Shown here one piece after another: positions 12,795 through 53,476 of a stretch of DNA of 64,000 nt; positions within the stretch are counted from its first letter, which is position 1, and every line of letters starts with the position of its first letter. The DNA is from a virus (Duplodnaviria; Caudoviricetes). The translations under genes were made by a program, and so were the position numbers. The DNA is taken from positions 4,153-68,152 of the IMG/VR virus record IMGVR_UViG_3300031998_000067; one strand, 5' to 3'. Below the pieces are notes generated by a model. It ran no database searches and was not told the DNA's origin. It saw only the letters and a program-made list of their open reading frames with translations.

Positions 12795-12799
12795 TCAGC

Positions 12800-18377: not shown

Positions 18378-18378
18378 A

Positions 18379-18409
18379 TTGCTTTTTCAATAAATCTTTT
18401 CTATCTTTG
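18379..18409 (+). promoter_or_regulatory. Bacteroidota sigma-A promoter, antisense to the tail operon
   Basis: TTG-N20-TATCTTTG in the intergenic gap. Confidence 0.6.
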
Positions 18410-18501
18410 TCTCATCGTAAGCGAGACTTTGTGTTGGGGCCCGTGCAACAGGAATCCGGTTGGCATGCGTCGTTCCCTTCTCTTAATCCCGCTTACTTTT
18501 T

Positions 18502-20763
18502 TTATCCCCCGAGTATGATATTGTCGGTATTTCCGAACCACACCTTCGTGCAGTCAAAACGCGAGGTATATCCCGGTATCGGGAGACGGCCACGCACCTT
18601 CACGATATTGCTCACGAGTTCCCATCCGCGATCCTTCTCGTAGTGGTACAGGCCGATATAAAGGTCGGTAACACCCTCCTTCTTCGAATCCAGATAATAG
18701 GTCACGCCGCTCTGCCGATGCGTGTAGATATTGTTATCCATTATCTTCGGCATCTTCAGGGCCGCACCAAGCCTGGTAGCAAGGGTGGCCCCGTCGTACT
18801 TCCTACCCGTACCGGTAGCATAGGTAAGCTGTGAGTGCGAAGGCATGGAGCCGTGAGTGAGGATGTCCCATCCGATGATGCGGTAACGGAGCGCCGGAAG
18901 GCCGTTGGAATAGCCACGACGCACCAGTTGGTAGTTACTCGGCTCGCACTCGCGGAGGGGGTGCGTAACCGTCGGATTGGGATACCGTCGGGTGGTATGC
19001 GTGGACTCCTTGTCCGGACGGGGATTCTGCTGGCGGATAACAGAAGTGTTATCCTTTGACGGGAACCACTGGCCACGACGAGCATAACCGTAGCGGAGAA
19101 GCAGCACACGGTAGGAAGGATCAGCCTTAATCTGCGCCAGAATATCCGCGTCCATACCGTAGATGTCGGACACCCAGTCGTCACCAACTTGCTTCACGAT
19201 AAGATTCGTTGTCGGATTGGTGCTTGTGGGTATCTGCTTCGAGAGACCGATGTCGTCGATGATGTCCTGGAGCGTAGCGCCGGTGATGGACGGGTAGATA
19301 TTCCCGTCCTTATCATTGTCAAACCGCACCGTCTTGGTAATCACGCCGTACTTCGCTATGATGTCCGCATCCTCGATAAACGCCTTCCTCGCGTCCGGAA
19401 GCATCATAAGGTTCTCCTTGTACGTCTGCGGCAGAACACTCGTCGTAGGAAAAGATGAGGTGGTATAGGAGCCAGAGGCCACGACCGCGCCGGTCTTGTC
19501 CGTCACCGTGTAGGTGAGCAGAGAAATGTTGTAGTTGTAGATATAGACGAAGGTGGTGCTGTTATAACGCGCAGTGGCGGTTGCAATACTGCCATCGTCA
19601 TTCAGTGTGGTCTCGTACTCGATATTATATGTCGAATCGTGCACACGACCGTAGGTCTTGCCCCACTTGGAGATGGGAATCATCAGATTCGGAATATCCA
19701 CCGAATCAGCGTTAAGAATCTCCTTCCCGTTGTAGTACCTTCCGGGGAGGTTCCTTTCGGAGCCGTAGGCCACCAGACGAGTTAAGAAGTCCTCCTGGTT
19801 GGTGATGTACTTCCGGAGATTCACAAGACCGGCGTGACGGGCAAACTGGGCGGAGACTCCGGCATTGCTGACGAAGTTCACGCCCCCAACATTCACGACG
19901 ACGATCCACGTAGGAAGCGACTCGCATTCTTGCCCGTATTCATCTTTGATACTGCTCGGAACGGTACTGCTCGCGCTGCGGTATGAGAAGGTGTAATATA
20001 TCCCGGTCTCTTGCTCCTCCGCATCGGAAATACGGCCGTATTCATCGTAATCATAGTTCCAGGTGCAGGGGACGAAGACCATGCTCCACCCAACGGCGGG
20101 CCAGACCTCCTGGATATTATTCAGTCCGTCAAGGACGAAGCCGTCGATGGTGACGGCACGAGCCTCGGCGATAAGCTCCTCATAGGCTTCCGCATTCTCT
20201 CCGCCAAGCGTCGTGATCGGCGTCACGGTACGCTCATAGGAATAAGCATTGGAGGTGCAGAGCCAGAAATAGAACTTCACGCCCTTCATCGGATTGGTGG
20301 CCGCAAGGCTCAAGCGGTAAGCATCGGCGCAAGCCTGGAGGCGGGCAAGGATACCGGCCACCGGCTCGAAGGTTGAAAGACCGCTCCGCGTGGAATAGTG
20401 AATGAGGTTATCGTTCTCGACCTCCATATCCACGAAAGGCACAAGGGAGAGTATCTGGCCATAATCGTGGAACTGCACGCCGGAATAGACGAAGCCGCCG
20501 CCATAAAGACCTCCCTCGGCCTCTTTCTTCGGCTGAGGGATAGAGAAAAGCATAAAGCGGAGGTTGGTCGCCCCGATGAGACCGGCGCCCCAGTCCACAT
20601 AGTCGCCGACATTCCACGCGATAGGGTAAGGACTGGCAATGGTGAACTCCAGATAGGATATGTTTACGGTCTGGCCTACATACTTCATCTTCCCATAGAC
20701 CCTATCGCCATGGGAATTGAGTTTATAGTTTCCGCTCTTGTCATATATCGCTATCTGTGCCAT
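18502..20763 (-). CDS. tail tip/hub protein, N-terminal part
   Basis: Follows Dit; FLTRLVAYGSERNLP and KYGVITKTVRFD..IYPSI motifs. Confidence 0.75.
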   Translation of the reverse strand: MAQIAIYDKSGNYKLNSHGDRVYGKMKYVGQTVNISYLEFTIASPYPIAWNVGDYVDWGAGLIGATNLRFMLFSIPQPKKEAEGGLYGGGFVYSGVQFHDYGQILSLVPFVDMEVENDNLIHYSTRSGLSTFEPVAGILARLQACADAYRLSLAATNPMKGVKFYFWLCTSNAYSYERTVTPITTLGGENAEAYEELIAEARAVTIDGFVLDGLNNIQEVWPAVGWSMVFVPCTWNYDYDEYGRISDAEEQETGIYYTFSYRSASSTVPSSIKDEYGQECESLPTWIVVVNVGGVNFVSNAGVSAQFARHAGLVNLRKYITNQEDFLTRLVAYGSERNLPGRYYNGKEILNADSVDIPNLMIPISKWGKTYGRVHDSTYNIEYETTLNDDGSIATATARYNSTTFVYIYNYNISLLTYTVTDKTGAVVASGSYTTSSFPTTSVLPQTYKENLMMLPDARKAFIEDADIIAKYGVITKTVRFDNDKDGNIYPSITGATLQDIIDDIGLSKQIPTSTNPTTNLIVKQVGDDWVSDIYGMDADILAQIKADPSYRVLLLRYGYARRGQWFPSKDNTSVIRQQNPRPDKESTHTTRRYPNPTVTHPLRECEPSNYQLVRRGYSNGLPALRYRIIGWDILTHGSMPSHSQLTYATGTGRKYDGATLATRLGAALKMPKIMDNNIYTHRQSGVTYYLDSKKEGVTDLYIGLYHYEKDRGWELVSNIVKVRGRLPIPGYTSRFDCTKVWFGNTDNIILGG

Positions 20764-33046: not shown

Positions 33047-34663
33047 GTGGTCTTTTCCAAGGACATACCGGTCTTGTCTTATGCGGCTGTTCAGGCTCTC
33101 CGGGATAAGGACAAGGACACAATCAATCCGCTTCGCATCATCGCCCAGGCGGGTGCGCAGGAGCGCATGCTTTCACGCGACGTAGATATAATGATTGGTG
33201 GAGGCTCGAGAGGCGGTTCCAAGTCCTTCAGCCTCGTTATGGAAGGGCTCAAGGACATCAACGAGCCCGCATTCTCCGGCCTTATCGTACGTAATGAGCG
33301 CGACGACCTTACCCAAGTAATCGACTACTCCCTCCAGATGTACTCCCAGTACGGCACATTCAACCGTTCCCGCGACGACCGTACCTGGAACTTCACCGCC
33401 GGAGGAAAACTCCGCTTCTCCTACTACGGAGATAGTATGGAGGACTTCAAGAAGCGTTTCCAAGGCAAGCAATACAACTACATCGGCATCGATGAAATCA
33501 CCCATATACCCTACGAGAAGTTCAAATACCTCGCTACCTGTAACCGAAACGGTATGGGCCTCCGTAACCGCATCTGGGGCACTTGCAACCCGGACCCCGA
33601 TTCGTGGGTGCGCAAGTTCATCGACTGGTGGATAGGCCCAGACGGATTCCCGATCCCTGAGCGTGACTGCGTGGTGCGCTACTGCTTTATGGACGGCGAC
33701 TCCCCGGACACAATCTACTGGGGCGACACTCCCGAAGAGGTGTACGAGCAGTGCAAGGACATCATCGAGCCTCTATGGAATGAGCGCTACGCCGAACTCG
33801 GGTACGACAAGAAGCGGATGTTCGTTAAGTCCGTCACCTTCGTCCGCGCCGGTCTGGAGGAGAACCTGAAACTGATGTTCTCCGACCCCAACTACCTCGC
33901 CAACCTTGCCCAGCAGTCAGACGAGCAGAGGGCACGCGACCTCGAGGGTAACTGGAACTTCAAGTCCGCCGGTGAGGATATGATAAAACTGCTCGATATG
34001 GAGCGGTTCTTCAACTCTCCCAAGATAGAAGGCGGAATCCGCTACGCCTCGTGCGACATTGCCTTCGAGGGCGGAGACTCCCTCGTGATGTGGCTCTGGG
34101 AGGGGTTTCACATCAAAGACCTCTACGTCTGCCGCTACGACTCCAAGACCACTATTCGCAACGTCAAGACCAAGCTTCAGGAGTGGGGAGTCCTCGAGGA
34201 GCACTTCTGCTACGACCTTAACGGGCTCGGCCAGGCGTTCCGGGGTTTCTTCCCCCACGCCAAGCCGTTCAACAACACGGCCGGTGTGGAGCCGAGGTTC
34301 AAGGGTATGTACCACGACCTCAAGAGCCAGTGCGCGTACCTCTTTGCCCACAAGCTGATCGACGGGGAGATGAGCATAGAGCCACGCCTTCTGTCGATGC
34401 GCTTCTCCGGCAAGGGATTTACCAGTGTCCCGCTCCGCCAGATACTCCTCAAGGAACGCCGGGCAATCCGTGGTGAGGACGATTCCTCCGACAAGGGATT
34501 CACGCTCATCAAGAAGAAGGTAATGAAAAACCTCGTCGGCCACTCTCCCGACTACATCGAAGCCCTTCTTATGCGCTTCGTCTTCGAGGTGGGCAAGGGT
34601 ATGCACAACAAGCCGAAAGGCATTCCCCAATACCGTAAAGCAACATCAATCAGATTCGTATAA
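33047..34663 (+). CDS. terL: terminase large subunit
   Basis: GGSRGGSKS (Walker A), IGIDE (Walker B), TCNP coupling motif, CDIAFEGGD nuclease domain. Confidence 0.92.
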   Translation: MVFSKDIPVLSYAAVQALRDKDKDTINPLRIIAQAGAQERMLSRDVDIMIGGGSRGGSKSFSLVMEGLKDINEPAFSGLIVRNERDDLTQVIDYSLQMYSQYGTFNRSRDDRTWNFTAGGKLRFSYYGDSMEDFKKRFQGKQYNYIGIDEITHIPYEKFKYLATCNRNGMGLRNRIWGTCNPDPDSWVRKFIDWWIGPDGFPIPERDCVVRYCFMDGDSPDTIYWGDTPEEVYEQCKDIIEPLWNERYAELGYDKKRMFVKSVTFVRAGLEENLKLMFSDPNYLANLAQQSDEQRARDLEGNWNFKSAGEDMIKLLDMERFFNSPKIEGGIRYASCDIAFEGGDSLVMWLWEGFHIKDLYVCRYDSKTTIRNVKTKLQEWGVLEEHFCYDLNGLGQAFRGFFPHAKPFNNTAGVEPRFKGMYHDLKSQCAYLFAHKLIDGEMSIEPRLLSMRFSGKGFTSVPLRQILLKERRAIRGEDDSSDKGFTLIKKKVMKNLVGHSPDYIEALLMRFVFEVGKGMHNKPKGIPQYRKATSIRFV

Positions 34664-40183: not shown

Positions 40184-40582
40184 CGACCAGGGCAGCAGCT
40201 CAGGCCGTGAAATTTTGTGCGCTCCGGGGAACGTCGCAGCTCTGCACCGTAGCATGGACGGGCCGGTGGTGAACGAATCCGAACGCGGGGAACGAGTTTC
40301 CCCAGGGCGAACGGCAGAACGTGATGAACGAGCAGAACGGTTGTGTTTGCAGCCAGTTCGATTTCACCACCGAAATAGTGAATGATTGATTGAACGAGTG
40401 CGGAACGGCTTGCGAGATTCTGGGTGTAAATCCAGGATCACGTCACAGACATTCAGAAATTCATCTTGACCGATGGACGGACGAGGAAAACAGGAACAGG
40501 ACAAGTCATAAAAACGCACTGGCGGAGGGTGGAGGAATCTGCCTTCCGTTTCCAATTCAACAACAACCAATCAACAACAACC

Positions 40583-40801
40583 ATGTGCAAAGTAAGTATT
40601 ATTCACGTTGCTTGCCAGGCGGGCAGCGAGGACGGCCGGAATTTCCCGGTTGAGAACCACGAAGAAATTATGAACATCTTTTCCCGTCAGTTTGAGGACG
40701 AGCGTGCTCAGGCAGCTTACTGCTCGAATTTCCTTGCGGAGATGGGGAACCGCATTTCTCCGGTGAACGGCATACCGATGCGTCAGTATGCGTGTGCATA
40801 A
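40583..40801 (+). CDS. array ORF, hypothetical
   Basis: ATG after the leader motif at 40566. Confidence 0.6.
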   Translation: MCKVSIIHVACQAGSEDGRNFPVENHEEIMNIFSRQFEDERAQAAYCSNFLAEMGNRISPVNGIPMRQYACA

Positions 40802-40869
40802 AGTGATTGTGTAGGTGGATTTGATTATCCGCCTACGCGCCAAATGTTTAACCAATCAAAATAGCTATT

Positions 40870-41118
40870 ATGAAAAAGATTATTTGCAGAGTTATCGAAC
40901 GACTGTTCCCCGAACAAGTTGCAAAGATTCGTGAAACGAACCGTGCCAGACGGGCTGCGATTCAGGTACTGCTCAACGTGAGCGGTGGTCTGCGTCGATC
41001 CGGATGCACGACCAGCGAAACGAACCGTGCACTGCGCAGTGCATTGAGCGCCTACGAACTGGGCGATTACGAGCATGTTCACGAACGTGCGGAACGTGCG
41101 GCGATAGCGAACGGTTGA
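40870..41118 (+). CDS. array ORF, hypothetical
   Basis: Leader at 40851. Confidence 0.65.
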   Translation: MKKIICRVIERLFPEQVAKIRETNRARRAAIQVLLNVSGGLRRSGCTTSETNRALRSALSAYELGDYEHVHERAERAAIANG

Positions 41119-41217
41119 CGAACGAACCGTATCCTGGATGCATCATCCTGACCGGTGTTGCATCCGCGAATTTTCACATTCACAATTATCAATCAACCAA
41201 TCAAAATCACAAGTATT

Positions 41218-41658
41218 ATGAAAAAAATGACTGTTACCGAACTGAACGCCCTCACCGACTACGTAGTGGAAAGCGTACTTGCATCCAAGCGCGACGAGGT
41301 TAAGAAATCCGTTTCCACGATCTCGGAGAACGAGTTGAACGAACTGCTCGCAAGGGCGGAAGAACTGGTCAAGGCCAAGAACGATGCGTACAACGCGCTG
41401 GAGGAGGCGAAGAAACGGCTCGATGAGTTTGAGAAAGGTCTTTTCGACAAGAATTTCCAGGGCCGTTACGTGTACGTGGATGGCTACTATTCCTCCACCA
41501 CGAAGATTCAGGAGTACAACGACGACACGCTGTTCAAGGGCACTAAATTCGAGCCGTGGATTCTCCGCAAGGACGTGGAGCGCAAGTTGGTCCTGAAGAA
41601 CCTCGGTTCGGAGGTGGACGTGGAGAGTTTCATCAAGGAACTGGTCGCGTCCTACTAA
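41218..41658 (+). CDS. array ORF, coiled-coil protein
   Basis: Leader at 41196. Confidence 0.75.
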   Translation: MKKMTVTELNALTDYVVESVLASKRDEVKKSVSTISENELNELLARAEELVKAKNDAYNALEEAKKRLDEFEKGLFDKNFQGRYVYVDGYYSSTTKIQEYNDDTLFKGTKFEPWILRKDVERKLVLKNLGSEVDVESFIKELVASY

Positions 41659-41724
41659 CCGATTTTTGGGTGCAGAATCCTGGCCGATTCTGCATTCACC
41701 ATTTCAACCAATCACAAACGAACC

Positions 41725-41919
41725 ATGGAAAAGACCTACGAATGTTGTCCGCACTGCGGTGCGGAGGTAGAGCTGGATGCAGAATTGAAGGTACAGAAAT
41801 GCCCGAACTGCGGAAAGCACATAGTAACGTGCAGTATGTGTATGAACGGCGAACTGGGCCGTCCGTGCACGTATGACTGCTGCCTTGAAATCCTGGCTCA
41901 TCACCTCAACGGTGAATGA
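41725..41919 (+). CDS. array ORF, Zn-ribbon protein
   Basis: CPHC, CPNC and CSMC pairs; leader at 41707. Confidence 0.7.
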   Translation: MEKTYECCPHCGAEVELDAELKVQKCPNCGKHIVTCSMCMNGELGRPCTYDCCLEILAHHLNGE

Positions 41920-41978
41920 ACGGTTGCGGAGCGAGTGATATTGCTCCGCAGCGCAAATCAACCAATCAACGAACTATT

Positions 41979-42419
41979 ATGAGAACACGTAAATTCAAGA
42001 CCTTGCGTGGATGGTTGAATTTTCTCAACCAACGCAGACCACGAACGAGCGCAAAGGGCAATCCGGAAATTTTCGAACCTCTGGACGAGTTTTTTAAGGA
42101 GGAACGGCATTTTGCCTATTTCTCCAACGTCTTCAAGGCGAACGAAAAATGGCACAGTGAAAATGTGATCCTCCCCTGGGAGGAGAAATATCCCGTCGCC
42201 CTTGCAATCGTGAACTACCACTGGAAATCACGCACGAAATCAGACCGTGAACGAATCGCAACGAACCTTGCGAAAGGCTACGGAGATTTGAGTTTTCTCC
42301 AGTGCTTTGCGGTGTCAATGGAGCGCGTGAACGGCAAGTGGCAGTATGTATTCTGCTCAAACGGCCTGAGCGGTCCGAGCTACGATTACTGCAAGCGAGA
42401 ATACGTGCGCAGTATCTGA
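41979..42419 (+). CDS. array ORF, hypothetical
   Basis: Leader at 41961. Confidence 0.7.
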   Translation: MRTRKFKTLRGWLNFLNQRRPRTSAKGNPEIFEPLDEFFKEERHFAYFSNVFKANEKWHSENVILPWEEKYPVALAIVNYHWKSRTKSDRERIATNLAKGYGDLSFLQCFAVSMERVNGKWQYVFCSNGLSGPSYDYCKREYVRSI

Positions 42420-42480
42420 ACGGTTGGCGGTTCCCGAAACGAACCGTCGGCCACCAATTCAATCTTCAAAATTCACAATT

Positions 42481-42783
42481 ATGAGCAAAAGTATCTATTG
42501 CGTCAAACACGAGTGGTTTGACGAGAGCGGAAACAAACTGGAATCCAAGTGCGTGACGCACGCCTGGTTTTCCGCATACTCACGCGCGGTGGACGAATTT
42601 GAATCACGTCTGACGAACCTCTACGACAAGGTTTATCCGAATCGACGAGTTGAACGGATTTCTCCAGCCACCGGATTTTCACCCGTGGACGGAACCTACG
42701 AACTATCCGCCGCAAAAGTGTATGCGAAACCGGAGGAGCAGAGCTGCATTCGCGTGGCACTTTGTGCCGTGGACTTGCAGTGA
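42481..42783 (+). CDS. array ORF, hypothetical
   Basis: Variant leader at 42453. Confidence 0.65.
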   Translation: MSKSIYCVKHEWFDESGNKLESKCVTHAWFSAYSRAVDEFESRLTNLYDKVYPNRRVERISPATGFSPVDGTYELSAAKVYAKPEEQSCIRVALCAVDLQ

Positions 42784-42847
42784 ACCATTTGCCTGGGCGT
42801 CCTTGGCCGGACAAACGGGCACCAACCAATCAATAAAACACACTATT

Positions 42848-43486
42848 ATGAACGACATCGCAAAAATGAGGAAGGAATTTGACGAGAAAATTCGCCTCGC
42901 AGAACTGGAGAATCAGTACAACGAACAGTTGGAAAAGGTCGGCCTTTCGATGAGTATTTTTACCACCGACAAGACCGGTCGTAATCTTGCGAGCATACAC
43001 AAGACGACCGACGACCGCTACCGCAATCCGTTTGACGGGCACGATGCGCAGAATCTTCTGCGGATTTTACCTATGACGGAGAGCAAGAGCGTGTACGTGG
43101 GCGACCACAAGTATGAACCGCTACCGTGCGAGATGGAAACATACCGCGCACCGAAATCTGCGAGAACGAACCTCTGCGTCAAGTACATCCACGACAACCT
43201 GGAGATATGGTTCGAGCTGCCCATCAACGAGCAGAACAACGAACTGATGCAGTATTTCCAGCGCACACAGCGTGAACTGGATAACAGCGAGATAGGGTTG
43301 TACTACGGATGTGTTTCTCCCAGGGAGAAATCGCGCTTGCAGATGCTCCCTTTCCTCACGTTCAACTGTGGACGGATCGTCCGTTTTCAGGGTGGCCATC
43401 ACAAGCAGATTTCCGAGGGCCACATCTCTTGCATCATAGCAAGCATCGAGAACGACGATTTCTCCTGGGAGCGCGTGAGTGAGTAA
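42848..43486 (+). CDS. array ORF, hypothetical
   Basis: Leader at 42825. Confidence 0.75.
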   Translation: MNDIAKMRKEFDEKIRLAELENQYNEQLEKVGLSMSIFTTDKTGRNLASIHKTTDDRYRNPFDGHDAQNLLRILPMTESKSVYVGDHKYEPLPCEMETYRAPKSARTNLCVKYIHDNLEIWFELPINEQNNELMQYFQRTQRELDNSEIGLYYGCVSPREKSRLQMLPFLTFNCGRIVRFQGGHHKQISEGHISCIIASIENDDFSWERVSE

Positions 43487-43548
43487 CGAACCGTTGCGTG
43501 GAGGGTGAATCTTCCACGCAGCACCAACCAACCAATCGAATCATAACA

Positions 43549-43842
43549 ATGTATTACAACGTAAGCGTATTGTTCTGCGAGTACGAGAATGGCATTTACC
43601 AACATCTGCCGTTTGCGTCGCCCGTGGTACGAACCGAGGAAGAGGCACAGAAACTCTTCGACTACGAACTGAAAGCCTACACAAACAACTGGCGCGGTAA
43701 CGAGCTGTTGTATGACAAGCCGGTTGACCGGACGCAGTTTCACAACGTCCGCCAGGCGCTCGTGAAATGCAACGAGGCTGCGTATGTGCACGGCTACTAT
43801 CTGCTTGAACTCAACGAGTGGAGTATCAATCCGCACGAATGA
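43549..43842 (+). CDS. array ORF, hypothetical
   Basis: Leader at 43531. Confidence 0.7.
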   Translation: MYYNVSVLFCEYENGIYQHLPFASPVVRTEEEAQKLFDYELKAYTNNWRGNELLYDKPVDRTQFHNVRQALVKCNEAAYVHGYYLLELNEWSINPHE

Positions 43843-43904
43843 GTGCTATTTCTCCCGGCTCCTGAACGAACCGGGAGGAACCGAACCAATCAAATCAAGT
43901 AACT

Positions 43905-44219
43905 ATGACACACAACTACAACATTTGGCTTTGGCCGGGCGCTGGTTACTGCCTGGACGGGCCGTGGGAAATCAAGGATGCAAGTTGCGAGGAGCACGCA
44001 ATCGAACTACTCGTGACCGACTTGATCGCAAAGGAGAGCTGGTGCTATTTGCTCAAAGAAGATGAGTATGAAAAGACGTGCCGTGAACTCGGTTACAATC
44101 CCGATGAACACGATGGCGACGATTTGGAGGGATGGTTGTACGTGGATGCAACAATGGAAGGTGCGCCCTATCCGGTGTATCTGCGGATCGAGAATATGCG
44201 CATCGATGAAATCAAGTGA
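43905..44219 (+). CDS. array ORF, acidic hypothetical
   Basis: Leader at 43885. Confidence 0.7.
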   Translation: MTHNYNIWLWPGAGYCLDGPWEIKDASCEEHAIELLVTDLIAKESWCYLLKEDEYEKTCRELGYNPDEHDGDDLEGWLYVDATMEGAPYPVYLRIENMRIDEIK

Positions 44220-44278
44220 TTTGCTCCGGCGGATTTGAGCGTCCGCCAGGGCGCCAACAACCAATCTACACAATCACT

Positions 44279-44548
44279 ATGCTTAAAGACAGAGTAAAAG
44301 AACTAATCGACCGCTACGAAGAGGGCGAAGAATGCCTCACTCCGAGCGACGTCCAAGAGGAACTTGAAAATATCCTCACAGACGAACCGTATGACAGTGT
44401 GAACCTCAAACTCGAGATGGATTTGCAAGACGCACTACACGACTACATCATCGCTCAGCACGACGCGGAGCGTGGTGGTGGCCGCATCCCGGACGGTGGC
44501 GACGAATTTATCGAAGCCGTGGAGCGAATCATCGGCTACAATGACTAA
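44279..44548 (+). CDS. array ORF, strongly acidic protein
   Basis: Leader at 44260; D/E-rich. Confidence 0.7.
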   Translation: MLKDRVKELIDRYEEGEECLTPSDVQEELENILTDEPYDSVNLKLEMDLQDALHDYIIAQHDAERGGGRIPDGGDEFIEAVERIIGYND

Positions 44549-44606
44549 CCGTTCCTTGCGGGAGTGAAATTCCGCAAGGGAGCCAACCAATCAAATATCT
44601 ATCACT

Positions 44607-45251
44607 ATGCGAACCATTACATTTAACGTGTACCAACTGGACGAGTTGTCCGAGGGTGCAAGGAAGAACGCCATTGATAACGTGCGCTCCAAGGTAGGCG
44701 ATATGCTCTGCGATTTCGACGCGGACGATTACCGCTCCACTCTGGAGGAGATCGAGAAAATCTTCGGCATCAAAGTGTACGACTGGAGCGTCGGTTATCC
44801 CGGCACCTATTCTCGCTGGCGTTTCACCGACGAACGGTGGAGCGAGATGAGCGATGATCCGAAATTCCTCGTGCGCTACTGGAACGCCGTGGAGCGGTAT
44901 TGCAGAAAGGGACGTTACTATTCCGGACATTGGAGGAACGTTCCGAAAAGCAAGGAGCATCCGGCTGGATTGTCTTGCCTCACGCGGTACAGCAAGGTTA
45001 TGTGGGAGCGTAACTATGCTCTCACCGGAACCTGGACTTCAAGCGTCGTGGATGATTACACCGGAAAGAAAATCTGGGAGTATGTGCGCAAACGCAGAAC
45101 GATTGAGGATTTCGTGGACGATATGCTCTATGATTTCTTCAAGCAGTGGGAGCGCGACCAGGATGCGAACTACGAGGATGAGGCCATAGAAGACACTATC
45201 CTCGGGAATGACTACGAATTCACCGAAAACGGTGTTCGTTACGTCGCATAA
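44607..45251 (+). CDS. array ORF, conserved mobile-element protein
   Basis: VYQLDELSEGARKNAI and EAIEDTILGNDYEFTENG, a widespread phage/plasmid pattern. Confidence 0.75.
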   Translation: MRTITFNVYQLDELSEGARKNAIDNVRSKVGDMLCDFDADDYRSTLEEIEKIFGIKVYDWSVGYPGTYSRWRFTDERWSEMSDDPKFLVRYWNAVERYCRKGRYYSGHWRNVPKSKEHPAGLSCLTRYSKVMWERNYALTGTWTSSVVDDYTGKKIWEYVRKRRTIEDFVDDMLYDFFKQWERDQDANYEDEAIEDTILGNDYEFTENGVRYVA

Positions 45252-45311
45252 CATCTGCCATGGCGGCATTGAACCGCCGCCGTGGCGCCACACCAATCAA
45301 ATTCAAGCACT

Positions 45312-45572
45312 ATGAACACACAAACACGCAACGAGATTGCATCTTGGCTCTTCGATAGAGTGGGCCAAGGCAAGCGCGAAGAAGTCGGCTCTATGGATTT
45401 CGACACCTTCAACGACGGACAAGAAGAGTTCCGTGTAACCATTATGAAAGATGAGGACGACAAGTACCAGGTCTGGATGATGGACTATGCGATTCCCGAT
45501 TTCACAATCGAGCAGAACACCACGGAGGAACTGATACAGACCGCCATTGATTTGTGGTACGAAACGCTTTGA
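45312..45572 (+). CDS. array ORF, acidic hypothetical
   Basis: Leader at 45292. Confidence 0.7.
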   Translation: MNTQTRNEIASWLFDRVGQGKREEVGSMDFDTFNDGQEEFRVTIMKDEDDKYQVWMMDYAIPDFTIEQNTTEELIQTAIDLWYETL

Positions 45573-45575
45573 GCC

Positions 45576-45794
45576 ATGGAAGAAGAAAACCCTATCTGGA
45601 AACTGATCGAGCGCATCGAGAATGCGTTTTCGAAGGATGATTTGAAATCGGCACCACGCGAGGTGCTGGAGCAAGTCATTGCTGACACTTACGACGGACT
45701 GTGCGCCATCGCTGATTCCCAGGTTGACCCGTGGGAAAGGGATGATGTTGCGCTCGCAGAAATCCGCAACCGAATCTTGTCTGTGCGCTCTTGA
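45576..45794 (+). CDS. array ORF, hypothetical
   Basis: Starts 3 nt after the upstream stop. Confidence 0.6.
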   Translation: MEEENPIWKLIERIENAFSKDDLKSAPREVLEQVIADTYDGLCAIADSQVDPWERDDVALAEIRNRILSVRS

Positions 45795-45978
45795 CCGAGC
45801 GCATAGGCGCCAATCCAAAATTATTCATTATCTTTGCAGACAGCAACACGCAGGGATGCGTGACATAATAAAAGGGAGACTGTCGTGAGACAGCCGTGAG
45901 TTATTAAAAAATTTTCTGGCCAGTCATTCGGGAACGAGTGGCTGGCTTCCATTTTACAACCAATCAAATCACATACTT

Positions 45979-46359
45979 ATGGACGAAAAAATCATTTTGA
46001 GGCCCGCGCAGTATTATCTCTGCGACCGGGAGAAAGAAATCGAGCCCGGCAAGAAGTATCTCTGCGAGACCGGCTCGTCTTACGAAATGAACCTCACCCT
46101 GACGTGTGAGCAAATCCAGCAAGGCTATCACTCCGGCTCTTGTGATGCCGACGTGGAGGCCCTTATGGAAGCGCCCGAGGTCAAGGCTCAGCTTGACGCC
46201 ATTCCCGACGACACACTCAACAAGTGGTGGGAGAACGATATGTTCGTGGACGACACTCCGGAAGAGCACCAGAACGCCACTCGCAAGCAGCGCCTTGCGT
46301 GGCTCGTGTTTGACTGCTGCGCCAACGCAATCGATGGCTACTGCTATGAGATGAAGTGA
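45979..46359 (+). CDS. array ORF, acidic hypothetical
   Basis: Leader at 45959. Confidence 0.7.
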   Translation: MDEKIILRPAQYYLCDREKEIEPGKKYLCETGSSYEMNLTLTCEQIQQGYHSGSCDADVEALMEAPEVKAQLDAIPDDTLNKWWENDMFVDDTPEEHQNATRKQRLAWLVFDCCANAIDGYCYEMK

Positions 46360-46360
46360 T

Positions 46361-46576
46361 ATGGCAAAGCGTAGAACACTCCGAGAGAGGGTTGCCGAAC
46401 TCAATGAGATTCTTGGCGACCACCCGAAGTTTCATTTCGGCATCATCCAGAACTACACGGAGCACCGCTATCCGTATGCTCTTGTGTGGAACTGTTGCGG
46501 TGCGGTGGAACGTAGTCTTTCCTTCCGCGAGATGAAACAAATGGCCATCCAACTGCACGCAGAAATCGCGCAGTAA
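46361..46576 (+). CDS. array ORF, hypothetical
   Basis: Coupled to the upstream stop. Confidence 0.6.
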   Translation: MAKRRTLRERVAELNEILGDHPKFHFGIIQNYTEHRYPYALVWNCCGAVERSLSFREMKQMAIQLHAEIAQ

Positions 46577-46640
46577 CTCTTTACTCTCTGCCCATTGAAC
46601 CGGACAGAGGGTGCCACAAACCAATCAAATCTTTACTATC

Positions 46641-46907
46641 ATGAAAATCGTATCATTAAACCACGAAAGCAACGACGTAGAGTTTTTCTACCTCACAGAC
46701 GAGTATGCCAAATGGTGCATCGACCACGCAATCGGCGACGAAGAGTACGAAGAGCCTGAGTGCTTCAACAACTTTATGACCGATTTCTTCCGTGATCTCG
46801 GATATGACAATCCGGAGTTTAAGTCCTTTATGCGAATCGACGATGATGATACTCCGGTGAATATCCTGGAGGCTTATCCCGATGAGCATATCATCGAAAC
46901 CATCTAA
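46641..46907 (+). CDS. array ORF, strongly acidic protein
   Basis: Leader at 46620. Confidence 0.7.
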   Translation: MKIVSLNHESNDVEFFYLTDEYAKWCIDHAIGDEEYEEPECFNNFMTDFFRDLGYDNPEFKSFMRIDDDDTPVNILEAYPDEHIIETI

Positions 46908-46918
46908 TCCGGCGTGCT

Positions 46919-47248
46919 ATGAAAGCAAGACTTTATCGTGCGACTGGCGAGGCCAGAAACTACGTCGATGGCTACACGCTCTATTTCCCGTACCCGAAAT
47001 GGTATCGGGAAGAGCTGCCTTACTATTCTATCGGGTGCTTCCTCGGATGCTCCCCGGCAAGGGACGGAACGATGATCCGTTGCAACTGGGACGAGATGGA
47101 CGAGAAGTACACTTTCAAGGGCCTTGGCCGAAAGGTAAAAATTGAGTCTATGCCCGAACCTTTCCAGAAAGAGGTTGCAAGGATGCAAGCACTCTGGGAC
47201 GAGGCGTGCAAGACACGCAATTTCGACCGGTGGAATAAGGAGGCGTAA
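46919..47248 (+). CDS. array ORF, hypothetical
   Basis: Ends at the terminator hairpin at 47251. Confidence 0.7.
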   Translation: MKARLYRATGEARNYVDGYTLYFPYPKWYREELPYYSIGCFLGCSPARDGTMIRCNWDEMDEKYTFKGLGRKVKIESMPEPFQKEVARMQALWDEACKTRNFDRWNKEA

Positions 47249-47250
47249 AG

Positions 47251-47345
47251 AAAAACCCCAGACGTGTCTGGGGTTCCCCGCCGGACGGATTCCGGCATCT
47301 TTAAGCACTTTTCAAGTATGCGCTTCAAATTCATCTTGAAAATCG
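47251..47345 (-). ncRNA. candidate small RNA
   Basis: Minus-strand promoter TTTG-N20-TACCTTTA, two stems and a terminator. Confidence 0.4.
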
Positions 47346-47480
47346 GGCGGATAAAGGTAGTAATTTCTAACTACTAATCCAAATCCGAGCGCGGAGGGAC
47401 ACGCCTCCGCGTGTGCTTTCTGTATGGGAAAGCGGACTTGACCGTCCGCCTTCCCTCCAATCAACCAATCAATTACAGCT

Positions 47481-47912
47481 ATGTACACCAGTGAAATTCA
47501 AAAGAGGCTTATGAACCTCATCGACAAGCACCAGACAACCTACAACCGTGCTTATGGTCTTGCTCTATACAACGGAGCCAACCCGAAAGAAATGACCGAT
47601 TCGTACCACCTTGCTCTCTGGTTCGAGGGTGCGGATGCGGGCGTCAAGAATGACTTCTTGTCAATCTTTGACAACTCATTCTCCGACACCGGCCTTCGCA
47701 TCTGCGACGTGTGCGGAAAGTTCATCACCGAGGGCTATCTGCTCCACGGCCTTGACGACTACGCTTGCTCCAGGGAATGTGCAATCAAAATCTTCCAGTG
47801 GAACGGACTGGATGCTTCTCTCTCGCCTGAAGAGGCAGAGAAGAGACTTGACCGCGCTCTGGAGGAGGACGAAGACGACAACTTCTGGACGGAGTGGTAT
47901 CAGGAATTGTAG
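47481..47912 (+). CDS. array ORF with Zn-finger
   Basis: CDVC and CSREC; leader at 47464. Confidence 0.7.
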   Translation: MYTSEIQKRLMNLIDKHQTTYNRAYGLALYNGANPKEMTDSYHLALWFEGADAGVKNDFLSIFDNSFSDTGLRICDVCGKFITEGYLLHGLDDYACSRECAIKIFQWNGLDASLSPEEAEKRLDRALEEDEDDNFWTEWYQEL

Positions 47913-47968
47913 GGGCGAAACCCTACTTTTCCACCAAACTTATGTTCAACCTTTTAATTCACAACATT

Positions 47969-48505
47969 ATGGAACCAAAAATTATTTTCAAGGATGGTCG
48001 TGAGGGCGAAATGACACTCGACGCTATCAAGGGCATCGCTATCCCGAGGATTGACGGTGAAACAATCTTGGTTTACCCGAAGTACAAGGACTGCATCCTA
48101 CTCGACGAGAACCGCATCCGCGATTGGAAAGAACCCGAGCACGATGAAATCGACGCTCTGTTCGTGGACGCGGACCGCAGTAAGGAGGTAACCGACGATC
48201 TGCTCGCGCTGGATAGCCCGGCGGCAAAGCATGTCCGCAGTGTCGGAGAGCAGTTCAACATCCCGAGTCTGCTCACCGTCGGAGCAATCTGGAAATACCG
48301 TAAGGACATCAATGCCCTTGCAAAGAATATCTCCGGCGCAGACCTTCTCCGCGAACGTCCGTACCTCTGGTCTTGCTGCCGTGGCGGCGCCTACTACGCT
48401 TGGATTGCCCTCGGCTACAACGGGTTCTTCAGCGGCATCAATATGTATTACAGCGTTACCGTTGTGCCCGTGTCGCATCTTAACCTGAGCGAAAGCGAGG
48501 CTTAA
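47969..48505 (+). CDS. DGR target 2, stand-alone CLec-like protein (about 178 aa)
   Basis: ATG 47969; FNIPSLLTV...INALA...YLWSCCR; ends in VR2. Confidence 0.9.
   Translation: MEPKIIFKDGREGEMTLDAIKGIAIPRIDGETILVYPKYKDCILLDENRIRDWKEPEHDEIDALFVDADRSKEVTDDLLALDSPAAKHVRSVGEQFNIPSLLTVGAIWKYRKDINALAKNISGADLLRERPYLWSCCRGGAYYAWIALGYNGFFSGINMYYSVTVVPVSHLNLSESEA
48360..48477 (+). repeat. DGR variable repeat VR2
   Basis: 118 bp matching TR 12674-12791; 18 mismatches, all at TR adenines. Confidence 0.97.
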
Positions 48506-48517
48506 TCCTTATTCCTT

Positions 48518-48544
48518 GGGCGAGGGCGCTCCGTCGCCCCGCCC
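48518..48544 (+). other. GC hairpin downstream of VR2
   Basis: GGGCGAGGGCG-CTCCGT-CGCCCCGCCC, 12 nt after the stop. Confidence 0.8.
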
Positions 48545-48607
48545 TTTGCTCTGGATAGTCGCCCCCGACCGGGCGGCTGTCTGCTAACAATCAAAAACAC
48601 AATCACT

Positions 48608-48841
48608 ATGGCTATCAAAGTAACAAAACGGCACACCGGCGAACGCGGGTGCACGTATTCAATATCTGGTTTGACCTTCGACCAGGTATTCCGCATCAAG
48701 AATGCAATGTATGCAGAGGCGGAAAAGATGAAGGCGATTGCAGAGGGCGAGATGCAAGACTATGCACGCTTGCAAGAGGAGTTTAAGCAGTACGCGAAGG
48801 ATGCCCTCTCCGTGGCCGAGGCGGTTAATCTTGGCATTTGA
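48608..48841 (+). CDS. array ORF, hypothetical
   Basis: Variant leader at 48586. Confidence 0.65.
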   Translation: MAIKVTKRHTGERGCTYSISGLTFDQVFRIKNAMYAEAEKMKAIAEGEMQDYARLQEEFKQYAKDALSVAEAVNLGI

Positions 48842-49076
48842 TTGGTTGTAGGGGCGGGGAACCGCCCCTTTGGCCGCTAATTAACCCAATCAAAACACAT
48901 TCATTATGGCAACACAAAAATTTCGCATCACCTTGGAGCATCCCTATGGCCCCTGGGACACCTATGTGGTAGAAGCTAAAGACCTCAAATCCGCAAGGAA
49001 GAAGGCAAAGGACATCTACGTGAAGAACTACTTCACAAGGAGGGAAATCAAGACATATAACGAGCCCTTATAGCCT

Positions 49077-49340
49077 ATGAAAGTCACGGTTTACAGAAGC
49101 GTCGATTCCAAGCCCGGCGCATTCATTTCCTACTCGATCACCGGCAGGAAAGACCCTATCGTGGAGTTCTACATCCTTGACCATGGTTTCCTTGTTCTGG
49201 GGGCAACCTACACCGGCGGATATATGAGACGATTCTACAAGACGGAGGCCGGAGCAAAGCGCTGGATGAAGTCTTACGTCACAGAGTTCTGCCGAACCTA
49301 CTGGCCGCATCATGAGATAGAAATCGTGCCGGTCTTCTGA
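49077..49340 (+). CDS. array ORF, hypothetical
   Basis: Packed ORF. Confidence 0.6.
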   Translation: MKVTVYRSVDSKPGAFISYSITGRKDPIVEFYILDHGFLVLGATYTGGYMRRFYKTEAGAKRWMKSYVTEFCRTYWPHHEIEIVPVF

Positions 49341-49404
49341 TGCTCGCCTTACCCGTATTGAACCACGGGTGAGGTGCCAATTTAATTCAATCAAAATCAC
49401 TGTT

Positions 49405-49710
49405 ATGGCAAAGGAATACGAACTCTATTTGCGCTCGTGGTCCCACCTCAACCCAAATGCGAAGGAGGACGAGGACTACGAAACTGTTGACTTCGAGCCG
49501 TGCGTCAACTATCGTGACGCGGTGAAACGGGCGAAGGAACTCTCTAAAAGCATTCCGTTCAAGAACCACTACGGACAAGAGATAGTCCAGGTGCAGATTG
49601 CCGCCTACATTGCGGATGAGGAGGAAAAGTACGGAACGACCTATTATCTTCTCTGGAAGGAAACCTACGAAAACGGCAAGGGCCTTGGGAGATACAACAG
49701 CGAAATCTAA
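49405..49710 (+). CDS. array ORF, hypothetical
   Basis: Hairpin plus variant leader. Confidence 0.65.
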   Translation: MAKEYELYLRSWSHLNPNAKEDEDYETVDFEPCVNYRDAVKRAKELSKSIPFKNHYGQEIVQVQIAAYIADEEEKYGTTYYLLWKETYENGKGLGRYNSEI

Positions 49711-49878
49711 CATTCAACGACTATGTATCACTACACAGTAGAAGTGTCCGCTGAAGGACATGAGAACACAAACTTCAACTCCTATGAAGTCGCCTTGGAA
49801 TACTACAACAAATTAAAGCAGCAAGGCATGAATCCCGTACTACGTGACAATCTCACCAACACCGTAATCAAGTAGGCT

Positions 49879-50196
49879 ATGGAACGCGAAATCAGTATTC
49901 AAATCCACGACTACGACCGTGCTGGCCGGTACGTGATTACCGAGGATCGCAAGGCGACCTTGGATGAGGTACACGAACTGAAAGAAACGGCACGTAAGTC
50001 CGTCAAGGCGGACTGGTGGAGGCTCCCCAGGGAGGCTACGCACATCGTGTACTATGCCGAGATGTTGGATAAGGACGGAGAGGTATGGTTCGCCGGTATC
50101 TATATGCACGGCGAGGCGTACGATGAGGCGGAGTTTGACCGTATCTTCCACCAAACGAACATCGGCTATGTCGGTGCAATTCACAAACGTGTTTAA
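49879..50196 (+). CDS. array ORF, hypothetical
   Basis: Packed ORF. Confidence 0.6.
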   Translation: MEREISIQIHDYDRAGRYVITEDRKATLDEVHELKETARKSVKADWWRLPREATHIVYYAEMLDKDGEVWFAGIYMHGEAYDEAEFDRIFHQTNIGYVGAIHKRV

Positions 50197-50260
50197 CCTT
50201 ATGCCCGGCGGCTCCTGATCGAACCTCCGGGTGCTATTCACCAATTAAAAATTACTCATT

Positions 50261-50512
50261 ATGAAAATCTATGTCGGACGTTGGGACTTGCTTCCCGACA
50301 ATCTGGAGGGTTATAATGGCCTTCGTCAAATGAACCGTATGGACGTGGCAGTAGAACTGTCGCACGAAATCGAACGTTATGCCGAAACGCACGACGTTGA
50401 GGACAATAGGATGGGTGTCTATACGCCCGAGGAATTCGAAGATGAGTTCAACCAGACCCTCGAGAAACACTTTACGTCCGAAGACTATTGGATTCGCATT
50501 TTTGCGTACTAA
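50261..50512 (+). CDS. array ORF, acidic hypothetical
   Basis: Hairpin plus variant leader. Confidence 0.65.
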   Translation: MKIYVGRWDLLPDNLEGYNGLRQMNRMDVAVELSHEIERYAETHDVEDNRMGVYTPEEFEDEFNQTLEKHFTSEDYWIRIFAY

Positions 50513-50528
50513 TCACTATCTTTGCACT

Positions 50529-50786
50529 ATGATGCCAAAGTGGTACTACATCTTATGGAACCGCCTCGCTTGGATAAGCGTGGCCGTGCTCGTGCTATTC
50601 CTTCTGGTAGCTTGCATCCTCGCGTTCATCTTCCATATCTACGTGTCCGGGGGCCTCTATTGGTGGGTATGCGCCGGATGTCTCGCGGTATTCGTAATGG
50701 GCCTCACCATCTGGTCTGACGGCGTTGCGCAGTATGGAAGGAAGAACGCAAAAGATGCGGAGGAAAAAGAAAAAGAGAAGGAGTAA
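50529..50786 (+). CDS. two-TM membrane protein
   Basis: Two hydrophobic helices and a charged tail; TATCTTTG at 50517 just upstream. Confidence 0.65.
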   Translation: MMPKWYYILWNRLAWISVAVLVLFLLVACILAFIFHIYVSGGLYWWVCAGCLAVFVMGLTIWSDGVAQYGRKNAKDAEEKEKEKE

Positions 50787-50866
50787 TCTTCCTATCAACG
50801 AATTATGGGCGGGCGAGGGTGATTCCTTGCCCGCTCGCCATTATTAACAATCAAAATCACAATGCT

Positions 50867-51703
50867 ATGACACCACTTTACGACGCGATCGAATGCGTCA
50901 CACCCAAAAGCAGACCGAGCCTTATCAAGTACCTGAAGGCCAGTAAAATCAACTCGTGGAATGACATAGACACTGCGCACCTCAAACGGTTCGCCAAGAT
51001 AGTCAGGTCTTCCATGGCACCATCATCAGCACACACCACCTTCGCCGTGTTCAAAGGATTCCTATCAAAGTTCGACGATGAAATCGATCTCCCGAAAGGG
51101 TGGCGTAAAATTCTCGTCCAGAAGAACGAAGACACAATGAAGACTTATCTCACCGCAGAGGAGGTCGAGAAGTTTGGCGAGGTCTGGGTAGATGATGCCC
51201 GCCAACAAACCGTCCGGGACGGGTTCTATGTTTCGTGCAAGACCGGACTCAGGCATTCCGATCTGGTGAAGCTGACGCCCTCCAACTTCGAGAAGAGGGA
51301 AGACGGCTCCTACCTCCTTAACTACGTCTCCAAGAAGACGAAAATCCACGCCACCATCCCTTGCTCCGCAAAGACGAAGGAGAAAGTGGATTGGCTACAC
51401 AAGAACGGCAAGCAAGTGTCGCTCTCGTACTACAACTATATGGTACGAACCATCGCGGAGTGGGCTGGCATCAACGAAGAAGTCTCCGTGTACAAGGCGG
51501 GACAAGAACTCACCGGCCCCAAGTATCAGTTCATTTCCTCACACTCTGCCAGAGTCTCGTTCAGCACGATCCTCGCCGATTTCGATACCGACCTCGTAGA
51601 TATTATGCGCATGGCCGGTCACAAGGACCCGGCAATGACGGCACGATATATCGTCCGGCACGGGGTGAGGGTTAACAAGAAGGTACAGAAATTCCTTATG
51701 TAA
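50867..51703 (+). CDS. second tyrosine recombinase lacking an arm-binding domain
   Basis: TGLRHSD (R), SSHSAR (HxxR), AGHKDPAMTARY (H, Y). Confidence 0.9.
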   Translation: MTPLYDAIECVTPKSRPSLIKYLKASKINSWNDIDTAHLKRFAKIVRSSMAPSSAHTTFAVFKGFLSKFDDEIDLPKGWRKILVQKNEDTMKTYLTAEEVEKFGEVWVDDARQQTVRDGFYVSCKTGLRHSDLVKLTPSNFEKREDGSYLLNYVSKKTKIHATIPCSAKTKEKVDWLHKNGKQVSLSYYNYMVRTIAEWAGINEEVSVYKAGQELTGPKYQFISSHSARVSFSTILADFDTDLVDIMRMAGHKDPAMTARYIVRHGVRVNKKVQKFLM

Positions 51704-51722
51704 CACTTAATATCAATCAGCT

Positions 51723-51938
51723 ATGTTCATCATTAAGAAAAACACCAAGGCCGGTCTCCAGTTCACCGGCATCGAATGCGAAATCCTCGACGAAGCCAAG
51801 GCCGAATGTTCTGTGCAGACTGCGGGGAAGACACCAACCACCGACGAGGCGGATAACTACTTCCGTCTGGAGGTGTACGAGGTTGCCGAGAATGGCGACC
51901 AGAACCAGGTGTATGTCACGGACTTCTTCGAGGAGTAG
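51723..51938 (+). CDS. acidic hypothetical protein
   Basis: Last ORF of the array. Confidence 0.65.
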   Translation: MFIIKKNTKAGLQFTGIECEILDEAKAECSVQTAGKTPTTDEADNYFRLEVYEVAENGDQNQVYVTDFFEE

Positions 51939-52018
51939 TCCGCATTGGTCACGGGAGCCTGACCGTTCCCGTGGTCGCTATCGCAGTTCATAGTGAACGG
52001 TGATTTTTGATTGGACGC

Positions 52019-52047
52019 CCCGGGGTATTGCGCCTCCGGGGTTTTTG
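52019..52047 (+). terminator. intrinsic terminator ending the array
   Basis: CCCCGG...CCGGGG-TTTTT. Confidence 0.7.
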
Positions 52048-52226
52048 TTGTATATTTGTGTCTCGGTAGGGTCACACCCAAAATCGGTTAAATCGATGCG
52101 ATTTAGATTTGGTTAAAAATCCTTAAAATGGGGGCAAAAATCGTTATGATTTCGCCTTGAAAACGAACCGAAATAGAGGGTGTAACTGATTGATAACCAC
52201 CGAGAATACCCATAAAACCGGGCTAC

Positions 52227-52303: not shown

Positions 52304-53476
52304 TTACTTTTTGAAAAGAGGGTTGTTTTTGAGCGCCTGGGCGTTCTCCTCTTTCGTCAGCTTTACATAGGTCGCAAATGACCTCTCGTTCTTGTGCCCG
52401 GTGATGAGCATTATCTGTCTCTCCGGCACGCCCTGCAAGACAAGCGTAGTCGCCAGAGATCGACGGCAGCAGTGGGACGAGATGAGCATATACTTCGGCT
52501 TCGTGGTCTTGACTTGCTTGCCACCCTTGACGATGGTGGTCGTGACGGGCTGATTGATGCCCGCCTTACAACAAACCATCTTTATCTCCCGATTCAGCTC
52601 CTCTTGGGACATCCGGGGTGCCCTTCCGCCGTTACGTTTGAGCATCTTCACCACCCTGGGAGAACAGGGTATAAGGGACTCCACGCCGGTCTTCCGCGAG
52701 GTGAGATGGATGATGCCGTCACGGATCATACTCTGCTCCAGATGCGAGTAGTCGGAGAACCGCGCCCCACAGTAGAAGCCGATGAGGAAAAGGTCGCGCA
52801 CTTCCTGGTCGTGCTTGTTGGGCAGCTTGAGGGCCCACAGACGCTCTATCTCGTCTTCGGTGAGGTACACGCTGTCCGAGGGCATAAAATGCTTCTTGAC
52901 GGCAAGGAACGCCGTGTTATGGTGCAATCCTTTGGCGAGCGCTTCGTTGAGACAGGACTTGAGTTTGGTTATCATCGAGGACTTGTAGTTCTCGGAGTAG
53001 TTGCGGTCATTGAAACCGTCTATGAGCCGACGGAACCAGTCTTCGGTGAGGTCGTCCCAGTTGTCGCCCTTTCCCATTATCTCCGCCACGATGTTCTGGG
53101 TGCTGACGTGTTGGCGTTTTGCGGGCCTCTCACGCGATGCGTACTCGTCATAGAACTCCCAGAACGTCTTGGGTGCTTCGGGCGTCTCTACGGGCAATTC
53201 TGCTCGCCCTGCGGCGATTCCGGAGAGAACTTTGCGGATATGCTCTTCGGTGGAATAGTCGTCGAGATGGGTTTGGAGGTAGAGGTCAATCTTCCGCATC
53301 TTCTCGGCTACCTTTGTATCGGTGCAATACTGCGGGCCCTTCTTCGGCACCTTCCACTGCTTTGTGGGAACTGTGATGCCGATGGCCTTGTTGTATATCT
53401 TGCCCTTATGATGGATGGCAATCCTTATCGGGCTCTTCTCCTTGCTCGGAGTGCAGAGGTTCCAGTTTATTTTCAT
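52304..53476 (-). CDS. int: site-specific integrase (tyrosine recombinase)
   Basis: N-terminal arm domain, CGARFSD, SSHCCRRS, TGHK...Y. Confidence 0.95.
   Translation of the reverse strand: MKINWNLCTPSKEKSPIRIAIHHKGKIYNKAIGITVPTKQWKVPKKGPQYCTDTKVAEKMRKIDLYLQTHLDDYSTEEHIRKVLSGIAAGRAELPVETPEAPKTFWEFYDEYASRERPAKRQHVSTQNIVAEIMGKGDNWDDLTEDWFRRLIDGFNDRNYSENYKSSMITKLKSCLNEALAKGLHHNTAFLAVKKHFMPSDSVYLTEDEIERLWALKLPNKHDQEVRDLFLIGFYCGARFSDYSHLEQSMIRDGIIHLTSRKTGVESLIPCSPRVVKMLKRNGGRAPRMSQEELNREIKMVCCKAGINQPVTTTIVKGGKQVKTTKPKYMLISSHCCRRSLATTLVLQGVPERQIMLITGHKNERSFATYVKLTKEENAQALKNNPLFKK

Follow-up and report, generated by a model that had tools for sequence, protein, structure and literature searches.

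Introduction

In a DGR, a reverse transcriptase (RT) together with Avd copies the RNA of a template repeat (TR) into adenine-mutagenised cDNA, which then replaces a VR in a target gene. The usual explanation of phage DGRs is that they adjust host range by acting on receptor-binding proteins.

In DGRs associated with phages, an adjacent target is often accompanied by a non-adjacent one, both within 50 kb (Wu et al. 2018, PMC5758913). In the Roseburia phage Shimadzu, sequencing reads show that both VRs are rewritten, and selection on the second seemed weaker than on VR1 (Cornuault et al. 2019, bioRxiv 10.1101/575076). The distal non-structural target of Quimbyvirus has methylases, a nuclease and RtcB as neighbours and was proposed to serve in phage-host conflict (Benler et al. 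2021, PMC8008677). The Bacuni phages have a distant DUF1566 target, which was interpreted as an adhesin (Hedzet et al. 2021, PMC8143477).

Here we analyse a 64 kb stretch (the window) of a 68,152-bp IMG/VR record (completeness ~70%, CheckV estimate), in which one TR is matched by VR1 in a tail-module gene (target 1) and by VR2 in a small remote gene (target 2). As in Shimadzu, whose VR2 lies in orf43, the second VR is carried by a gene that is remote from the tail gene and has no known function; the host of Shimadzu is a member of the Firmicutes, unlike that of the gut Bacteroidales phage studied here. LoVEphage (MW660583) shares with the window the single TR, a VR1 at the end of the tail module and a VR2 (34003-34115) in a small (194 aa) non-structural protein, QVQ57199.1. 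The target 1 proteins of the two phages are unrelated, and the second target is found in a methylase/RtcB island in LoVEphage but in a small-ORF array between head genes and integrases here. QVQ57199.1 was rejected as a homologue of target 2 (hhalign probability 0.1).

The cultured Bacteroides siphophage Bacuni_F1 has one target adjacent to Avd-TR-RT and a distant small DUF1566 protein, Bacuni_F1_00026 (224 aa), encoded between the DNA polymerase A and C5-methyltransferase genes. Bacuni_F1_00026 and target 2 both match the 4eps pilus-tip fold and differ in the N-terminal half of the former. Close kinship between them was rejected, the likeness being only at the generic DUF1566 level (32% over 73 aa at the C-terminus, hhalign probability 34). 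With BPP-1 (mtd-avd-TR-brt) the locus shares adenine-specific transfer from TR to VR, a target of the C-lectin fold whose VR is C-terminal, and an IMH with a downstream hairpin (PMC3240598). The only target of BPP-1 is an adjacent virion protein with an anchoring domain, whereas the window adds a remote target that lacks an anchor.

The first-pass annotation of this DNA described remote targets as rarely characterised. This overstated the novelty, given that both the architecture and the conflict hypothesis are already published for related phages (PMC8008677; PMC8143477; bioRxiv 10.1101/575076), and the locus by itself reveals no new mechanism. What is new, as judged from sequence comparison, is that the target-2 protein family differs from that of LoVEphage and occupies a different genome position, and that relic-VR copies appear to persist in complete phages without an RT. 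The locus thereby adds a second, sequence-unrelated protein family in the distal-target role within LoVEphage-like phages, together with a confident structural model and a natural allele series, both DGR-linked and RT-less, that make the function testable.

Results

The phage and its genome

The genes that define the setting of the DGR are as follows.

Minus strand: 1770-aa tape-measure protein, large tail proteins and major head protein
33-37.7 kb, plus strand: TerL, portal and head-morphogenesis protein
Directly after the head-morphogenesis gene, plus strand: array of small unannotated ORFs, 13 kb
50819-51703, plus strand, and 52304-53476, minus strand: two tyrosine-integrase genes, convergent (tail to tail)
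Beyond the integrase pair: methyltransferase, then primase/helicase at 60.4-62.5 kb

Pfam matches on the contig of a syntenic relative suggest that the primase/helicase region also includes ERF and SSB. The TerL of LoVEphage is 62.6% identical (aa) to that of the window, TerL, portal and the two integrases occur in the same order in both phages, and the LoVEphage integrase pair is likewise arranged tail to tail (17601-18419 and 18471-19610). Relatives of target 2 in bacterial assemblies originate from Bacteroidales MAGs. Given the TerL identity, the gene order with integrases and the Bacteroidales MAG relatives, the phage is probably a temperate LoVEphage/Quimbyvirus-like siphophage of Bacteroidales. 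When both DGR loci were compared with GenBank phages by megablast no match was obtained.

One template repeat and two acceptor sites

The DGR cassette and its two targets consist of the following elements.

11466-12644, minus strand: DGR reverse transcriptase, 392 aa (phrog_1423, E 5.8e-25; Pfam RVT_1, E 1.4e-6; YGDD motif)
12674-12795, minus strand: template repeat (TR), 122 nt, A-rich with 36 A, source of every A-to-N difference
12894-13349, minus strand: Avd-like accessory ORF, 151 aa, in the canonical position between target 1 and TR
13367-13392, minus strand: GC hairpin 3' of VR1, 9-bp stem, loop GCTCCGTA
13406-14683, minus strand: target 1, 425 aa, final gene of the tail module, after the tape-measure gene and three large tail genes
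13434-13555, minus strand: VR1
47969-48505, plus strand: target 2, 178 aa, predicted stand-alone DUF1566/C-lectin-fold protein (from AF2 model, scaffold dN/dS and homologues)
48356-48477, plus strand: VR2
48478-48505, plus strand: IMH-like 3' tail of VR2, common to VR1 and absent from TR
48518-48544, plus strand: GC hairpin 3' of VR2, loop CTCCGT

The RT gene ends 30 nt from the TR, and its product shares 31-32% identity with RTs from relatives that carry their own TR/VR sets. For the Avd-like ORF, phrog_3206 ('Avd protein of DGR') was a weak hit (E 0.005), and Pfam and NCBIfam gave none. The cassette is a canonical DGR (target 1, putative Avd, TR, RT) with two acceptor sites. The GxxxSQ motif is near-universal among DGR RTs; in this enzyme motif 4 reads GKIIMQ and the usual SQ is absent.

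TR, VR1 and VR2 could be aligned without gaps. All 17-18 mismatches between VR1 and TR (100%) and all 18 mismatches between VR2 and TR in 48360-48477 (18/18) are at TR adenines; with 36 A in 122 nt, the chance of finding 17/17 mismatches at A is ~1e-9. The homology of VR2 starts ~8 nt after that of VR1, and two non-A differences at 48358-48359 fall outside it. In frame with both target ORFs, the TR contains 12 AAC and 3 AAT codons. Only three TR-like copies, and three copies of the anchor CCTCTGGTCTTGCTGCCGT, are present in the whole 68-kb record, and target 2 is located 35.5 kb from the TR. The one-template, two-target relationship with mismatches confined to TR adenines, as first annotated, was thus confirmed to the base.

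VR1 and VR2 are followed by the same 3' tail, beginning CATCTTAACCTGAGCGAAAGCGA, where the TR has CAATTTATTTATGAAC. The GC hairpins follow ~40 nt downstream of both VRs and have similar loops; no comparable hairpin fold was found in the TR flank. Target marks of this kind, an IMH and a downstream hairpin, are described for the Bordetella phage DGR (PMC3240598). Relatives of the present phage carry the same marks at their VRs, including an analogous downstream hairpin. As shown in the sequence, the shared IMH-like tail and GC hairpin mark each VR as a candidate acceptor site. The two targets had been called co-diversified, which is imprecise in that the substitutions in VR1 and VR2 differ. This difference shows independent homing events of one template: each mutagenised cDNA would replace either VR1 or VR2, and the two are rewritten independently of each other.

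Diversification of VR2 in nature

Homologues of target 2 were collected as 35 close sequences and 32 from IMG/VR, where a scan with the single target-2 protein found nothing and an alignment-based scan recovered the homologues. The family is small, with 153 clusters of mostly 160-230 aa in a profile search of 1.84 billion representatives, and tblastn of target 2 against 50,697 phage records gave no match.

The JGI contig L059 is 97.5% identical to positions 46450-52097 of the window. About 28 of the 122 VR2 bases differ between the two, nearly all at TR-adenine positions, as compared with ~5 differences in the 1400 nt upstream (46950-48350). Given that this near-identical contig differs mainly in VR2, VR2 is being diversified in nature. 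Similarly, residues 1-130 are well conserved across the 35 full-length homologues and the AAC-derived positions are hypervariable, with SPAA of the DSPAAK motif invariant, and among 30 close homologues the pairs with at least 95% scaffold identity are only ~65% identical in the VR. VR1 also varies among relatives (14/25 differences in target 1 to P0188 are inside the VR). The dN/dS of the target 2 scaffold is 0.11 and 0.10 over residues 1-130, which indicates that target 2 is a real protein-coding gene. We searched for signs that VR2 is invariant across relatives and found instead that it varies between near-identical phages, as VR1 does; the proposed hypervariability of target 2 is thus upheld by A-site variation both in L059 and in the 35 homologues. 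From these sequence comparisons, target 2 is almost certainly a real and active second target of the DGR.

Even without retrohoming, VR2 could in principle resemble the TR if paralogous lectin genes had undergone ordinary duplication or gene conversion, and targets 1 and 2 are distant paralogues with the same fold. Such events are hard to reconcile with 18/18 differences on template adenines, with two proteins that can barely be aligned outside the VR, and with near-identical phages that differ almost solely in the VR and mostly at the same A sites. The adenine-only differences and the VR-restricted variation effectively refute this explanation, to which we assign practically no probability.

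In L059 (1493-2176) a 1-nt deletion in VR2 shifts the reading frame at the end of target 2 and yields a 227-aa product (P0007); the deletion either arose by defective retrohoming or reflects an assembly in which different VR variants were joined. A different phage, L058, has a target-2 gene that is 87% identical at the DNA level, with a VR that fits the same TR family. This gene (L058:4658-5197) follows a 1075-aa primase and precedes a YafQ-toxin-like gene in an otherwise unrelated context, and its VR is one codon longer. The unrelated context suggests that the target-2 gene may move between phage genomes.

Predicted fold of target 2

An AF2 model of target 2 built from a 53-sequence alignment had a pLDDT of 93 and a pTM of 0.89, and the whole chain is predicted to form one C-type-lectin/DUF1566 domain, in which the VR makes up the C-terminal strands. 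The model matched the pilus-tip domain of BACOVA_04982 (4eps_A) with Z 13.2 over 168 residues, the C-terminal domain of Lcl (8q4e) with Z 11.0, Bd2740 with Z 9.5 and TvpA with Z 6.3, as well as DUF1566 proteins and tail-fibre tips in BFVD with TM 0.70-0.78. Its neighbours in the ESM Atlas are named DUF1566, and Lcl_C is found in just 18% of one cluster. In sequence searches target 2 matched no Pfam family at E <= 0.01, including PF07603, and nothing in PHROGs or NCBIfam. In the model, the surface that can be randomised would comprise 15 codons.

The model of target 1 (pLDDT 95) shows the same C-lectin fold, again close to 4eps (Z 14.8), into which a beta domain is inserted at about residues 73-176; this insert is similar to domains of tail and flagellar-cap proteins (Z 6-7.7). 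Target 1 has more than 1000 homologues and no match in Pfam, PHROGs or NCBIfam. Outside the VR the two targets are barely alignable, consistent with distant paralogues of one fold. Given that target 1 combines this fold with an inserted domain and target 2 has none, the modelled target 2 looks like a bare binding domain without an anchoring part. No membrane segment or signal sequence was indicated in target 2 (maximum 19-residue Kyte-Doolittle average 0.96, N-terminus not hydrophobic), and no longer fused forms of residues 1-130 were found, which is weak evidence. The AF2 model, the hydropathy and the lack of fused forms agree with the original description of target 2 as a CLec-like protein of ~178 aa with no signal peptide, TM segment or fibre domain.

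Since all close structural relatives of target 2 are adhesins that work outside the cell, a serious rival to the non-virion reading is an accessory adhesin, either associated with the virion or released. As a soluble lectin, target 2 would bind non-covalently to the capsid or tail, or would act outside the cell after lysis, and would broaden attachment to variable Bacteroidales surface glycans, its gene merely lying apart from the structural module. Its best structural relatives are indeed tips of surface adhesins and C-termini of tail fibres (the 4eps pilus tip, Lcl and Bd2740), the two targets share both the 4eps-like fold and the template, and the position of a gene is by itself compatible with a virion role. 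The authors of the Bacuni study also interpreted both targets as adhesion proteins (PMC8143477). However, 4eps and 8q4e are domains of secreted surface proteins, whereas target 2 is free-standing and lacks a signal peptide, and the fold occupies all 178 residues so that no room is left for an anchoring domain, which longer fused forms do not supply either. Together with the gene neighbourhoods described below (0/35 loci in a tail or head module), this leaves the accessory adhesin a real but minor chance.

Genomic context and possible role of target 2

In the window, target 2 lies between the head-morphogenesis genes and the integrase pair, and its immediate neighbours have no annotated function in Pfam or PHROGs. 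The neighbours in the 35 loci with target-2 homologues include ParB-like/methylase genes (17 loci), VRR-NUC (13), HNH (8) and PcfJ (5), and no structural (tail or head) gene was found among the conserved neighbours in these loci. The order in G022 is replication initiator, target-2 homologue, methyltransferase, HNH and resolvase, and P0022 is surrounded by UvrD, RNase H and methylases. The placement of target 2 among small ORFs, as initially annotated, is borne out in the window, and this putatively early array is non-structural, as are the loci of more than 30 relatives. In all, more than 60 homologues are placed in regions of replication, methylase and nuclease genes in Bacteroidales phages. 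Because target 2 and its relatives are always found among replication, methylase and nuclease genes, this genomic evidence tips the balance slightly towards a non-virion protein.

We consider it probable that the locus is a DGR with two acceptor sites in which target 2 acts as a non-virion binder of a variable host or competitor molecule. The host cell, infected or lysogenic, would produce target 2, whose variable face would contact that molecule, an anti-defence role being one possibility. The recurrence of a small free-standing second target among replication and methylase genes suggests a hypervariable binder with another purpose than host range, possibly an intracellular one.

In a more specific version, proposed in the first-pass annotation, target 2 works inside the cell and inhibits, in a tunable way, proteins of host defence or regulation; variable restriction, specificity or sensor proteins would be examples. 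DNA methyltransferases and nucleases are repeatedly adjacent to the gene family, target 2 has cytoplasmic features, and the Quimbyvirus authors inferred the same role (PMC8008677). This case is a contextual one. The immediate neighbours of target 2 itself lack annotated functions, and a 2026 survey found no DGR that targets known anti-defence proteins (bioRxiv 10.64898/2026.03.05.709809). We regard such an inhibitor as unlikely on the available sequence context.

Maintenance and decay of the two-target layout

The layout of one TR and two VRs is kept in three IMG/VR relatives (G013, G029 and G019) in which the target-2 homologue has only ~35% aa identity to target 2. In these, the VR of the homologue differs from the resident TR by 16-22 adenine differences and 0-1 other bases, the homologue is located 13-23 kb from the RT, and the IMH and hairpin are common to both targets. 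Given its retention at this level of divergence, the layout is, as far as sequences can tell, old and maintained.

G019 (L045/L046; L027) is a provirus in which the RT frame is broken by two TGA codons. Both of its VRs differ from the TR at adenines only (16/0 for the target-2 homologue), and its DGR may have been inactivated recently. In G031 (L039) an RT is present and the target-2 homologue ends before the VR, which is deleted. In G022 (L030) identity between the VR of the homologue and the resident TR is no more than 66-70%, and part of the IMH/hairpin region is deleted. G031 and G022 look like decayed second targets.

These cases bear on the idea that VR2 is a passenger acceptor site, rewritten by virtue of its IMH and hairpin, with largely neutral variation and a conserved function of target 2 that is independent of diversification. 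The VR of G022 no longer matches its TR, that of G031 is gone, many complete phages carry the family without an RT, VRs are frozen between close relatives (see below), and selection on VR2 of Shimadzu is weak (10.1101/575076). A passenger site would on the other hand not be expected to be kept with the two-target layout across relatives ~35% identical in target 2, nor to retain IMH and hairpin at both sites, and the AAC-codon design prevents stop codons in the target-2 frame too. We therefore judge a mere passenger role to be decidedly unlikely, and a diversified binder remains the preferred reading.

Copies without a reverse transcriptase

Among the 21 IMG/VR records that are at least 90% complete and carry the target-2 family, only two contain an RT, and in most such records the target-2 VR is the sole TR-like sequence. 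A TR copy was not found within +/-10 kb of any target-2 homologue. The IMH-like tail and the GC hairpin are nevertheless kept without RT or TR in L024 (G016, DTR-complete), L013, L026, L028, L032, L035 and L036. The RT-less VRs differ from related TRs mainly at adenines (e.g. 20 A vs 4 non-A) and are hypervariable at moderate divergence. In the two closest RT-less pairs (97% scaffold identity) the VRs are 99-100% identical. By their sequences, the RT-less copies look like relics of past diversification, i.e. orphan DGR targets.

It is conceivable that the family consists of widespread free-standing, cytoplasmic, hypervariable lectin-fold binders for intracellular conflict and that RT-less copies which have retained the IMH-like tail and the hairpin are re-diversified in trans by co-resident relatives that bear a DGR. 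If this were true, DGR activity would be a resource shared among co-resident phages. Ongoing diversification in trans was unsupported by the VRs of the closest RT-less pairs, which are 99-100% identical in a small sample, and we consider the combined scenario very improbable.

Upstream signals of the small-ORF array

For the target-2 gene itself, a scan of its surroundings for promoters and terminators found no signal above background. The motif ACCAATC occurs in 26 copies in the window (9.1 expected). Fourteen of these are on the plus strand in the small-ORF array (40566-47470), each shortly 5' of an ATG and 3' of a hairpin. A related unit precedes target 2.

47909-47926, plus strand: hairpin 5' of target 2; after it comes the leader ACCAAAC (47934-47940), one mismatch from ACCAATC

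This hairpin and ACCAAAC have the same unit design as in the small genes at 40.5-47.5 kb, and ACCAATC with its hairpin may be a common leader or regulatory unit of the small-ORF array.
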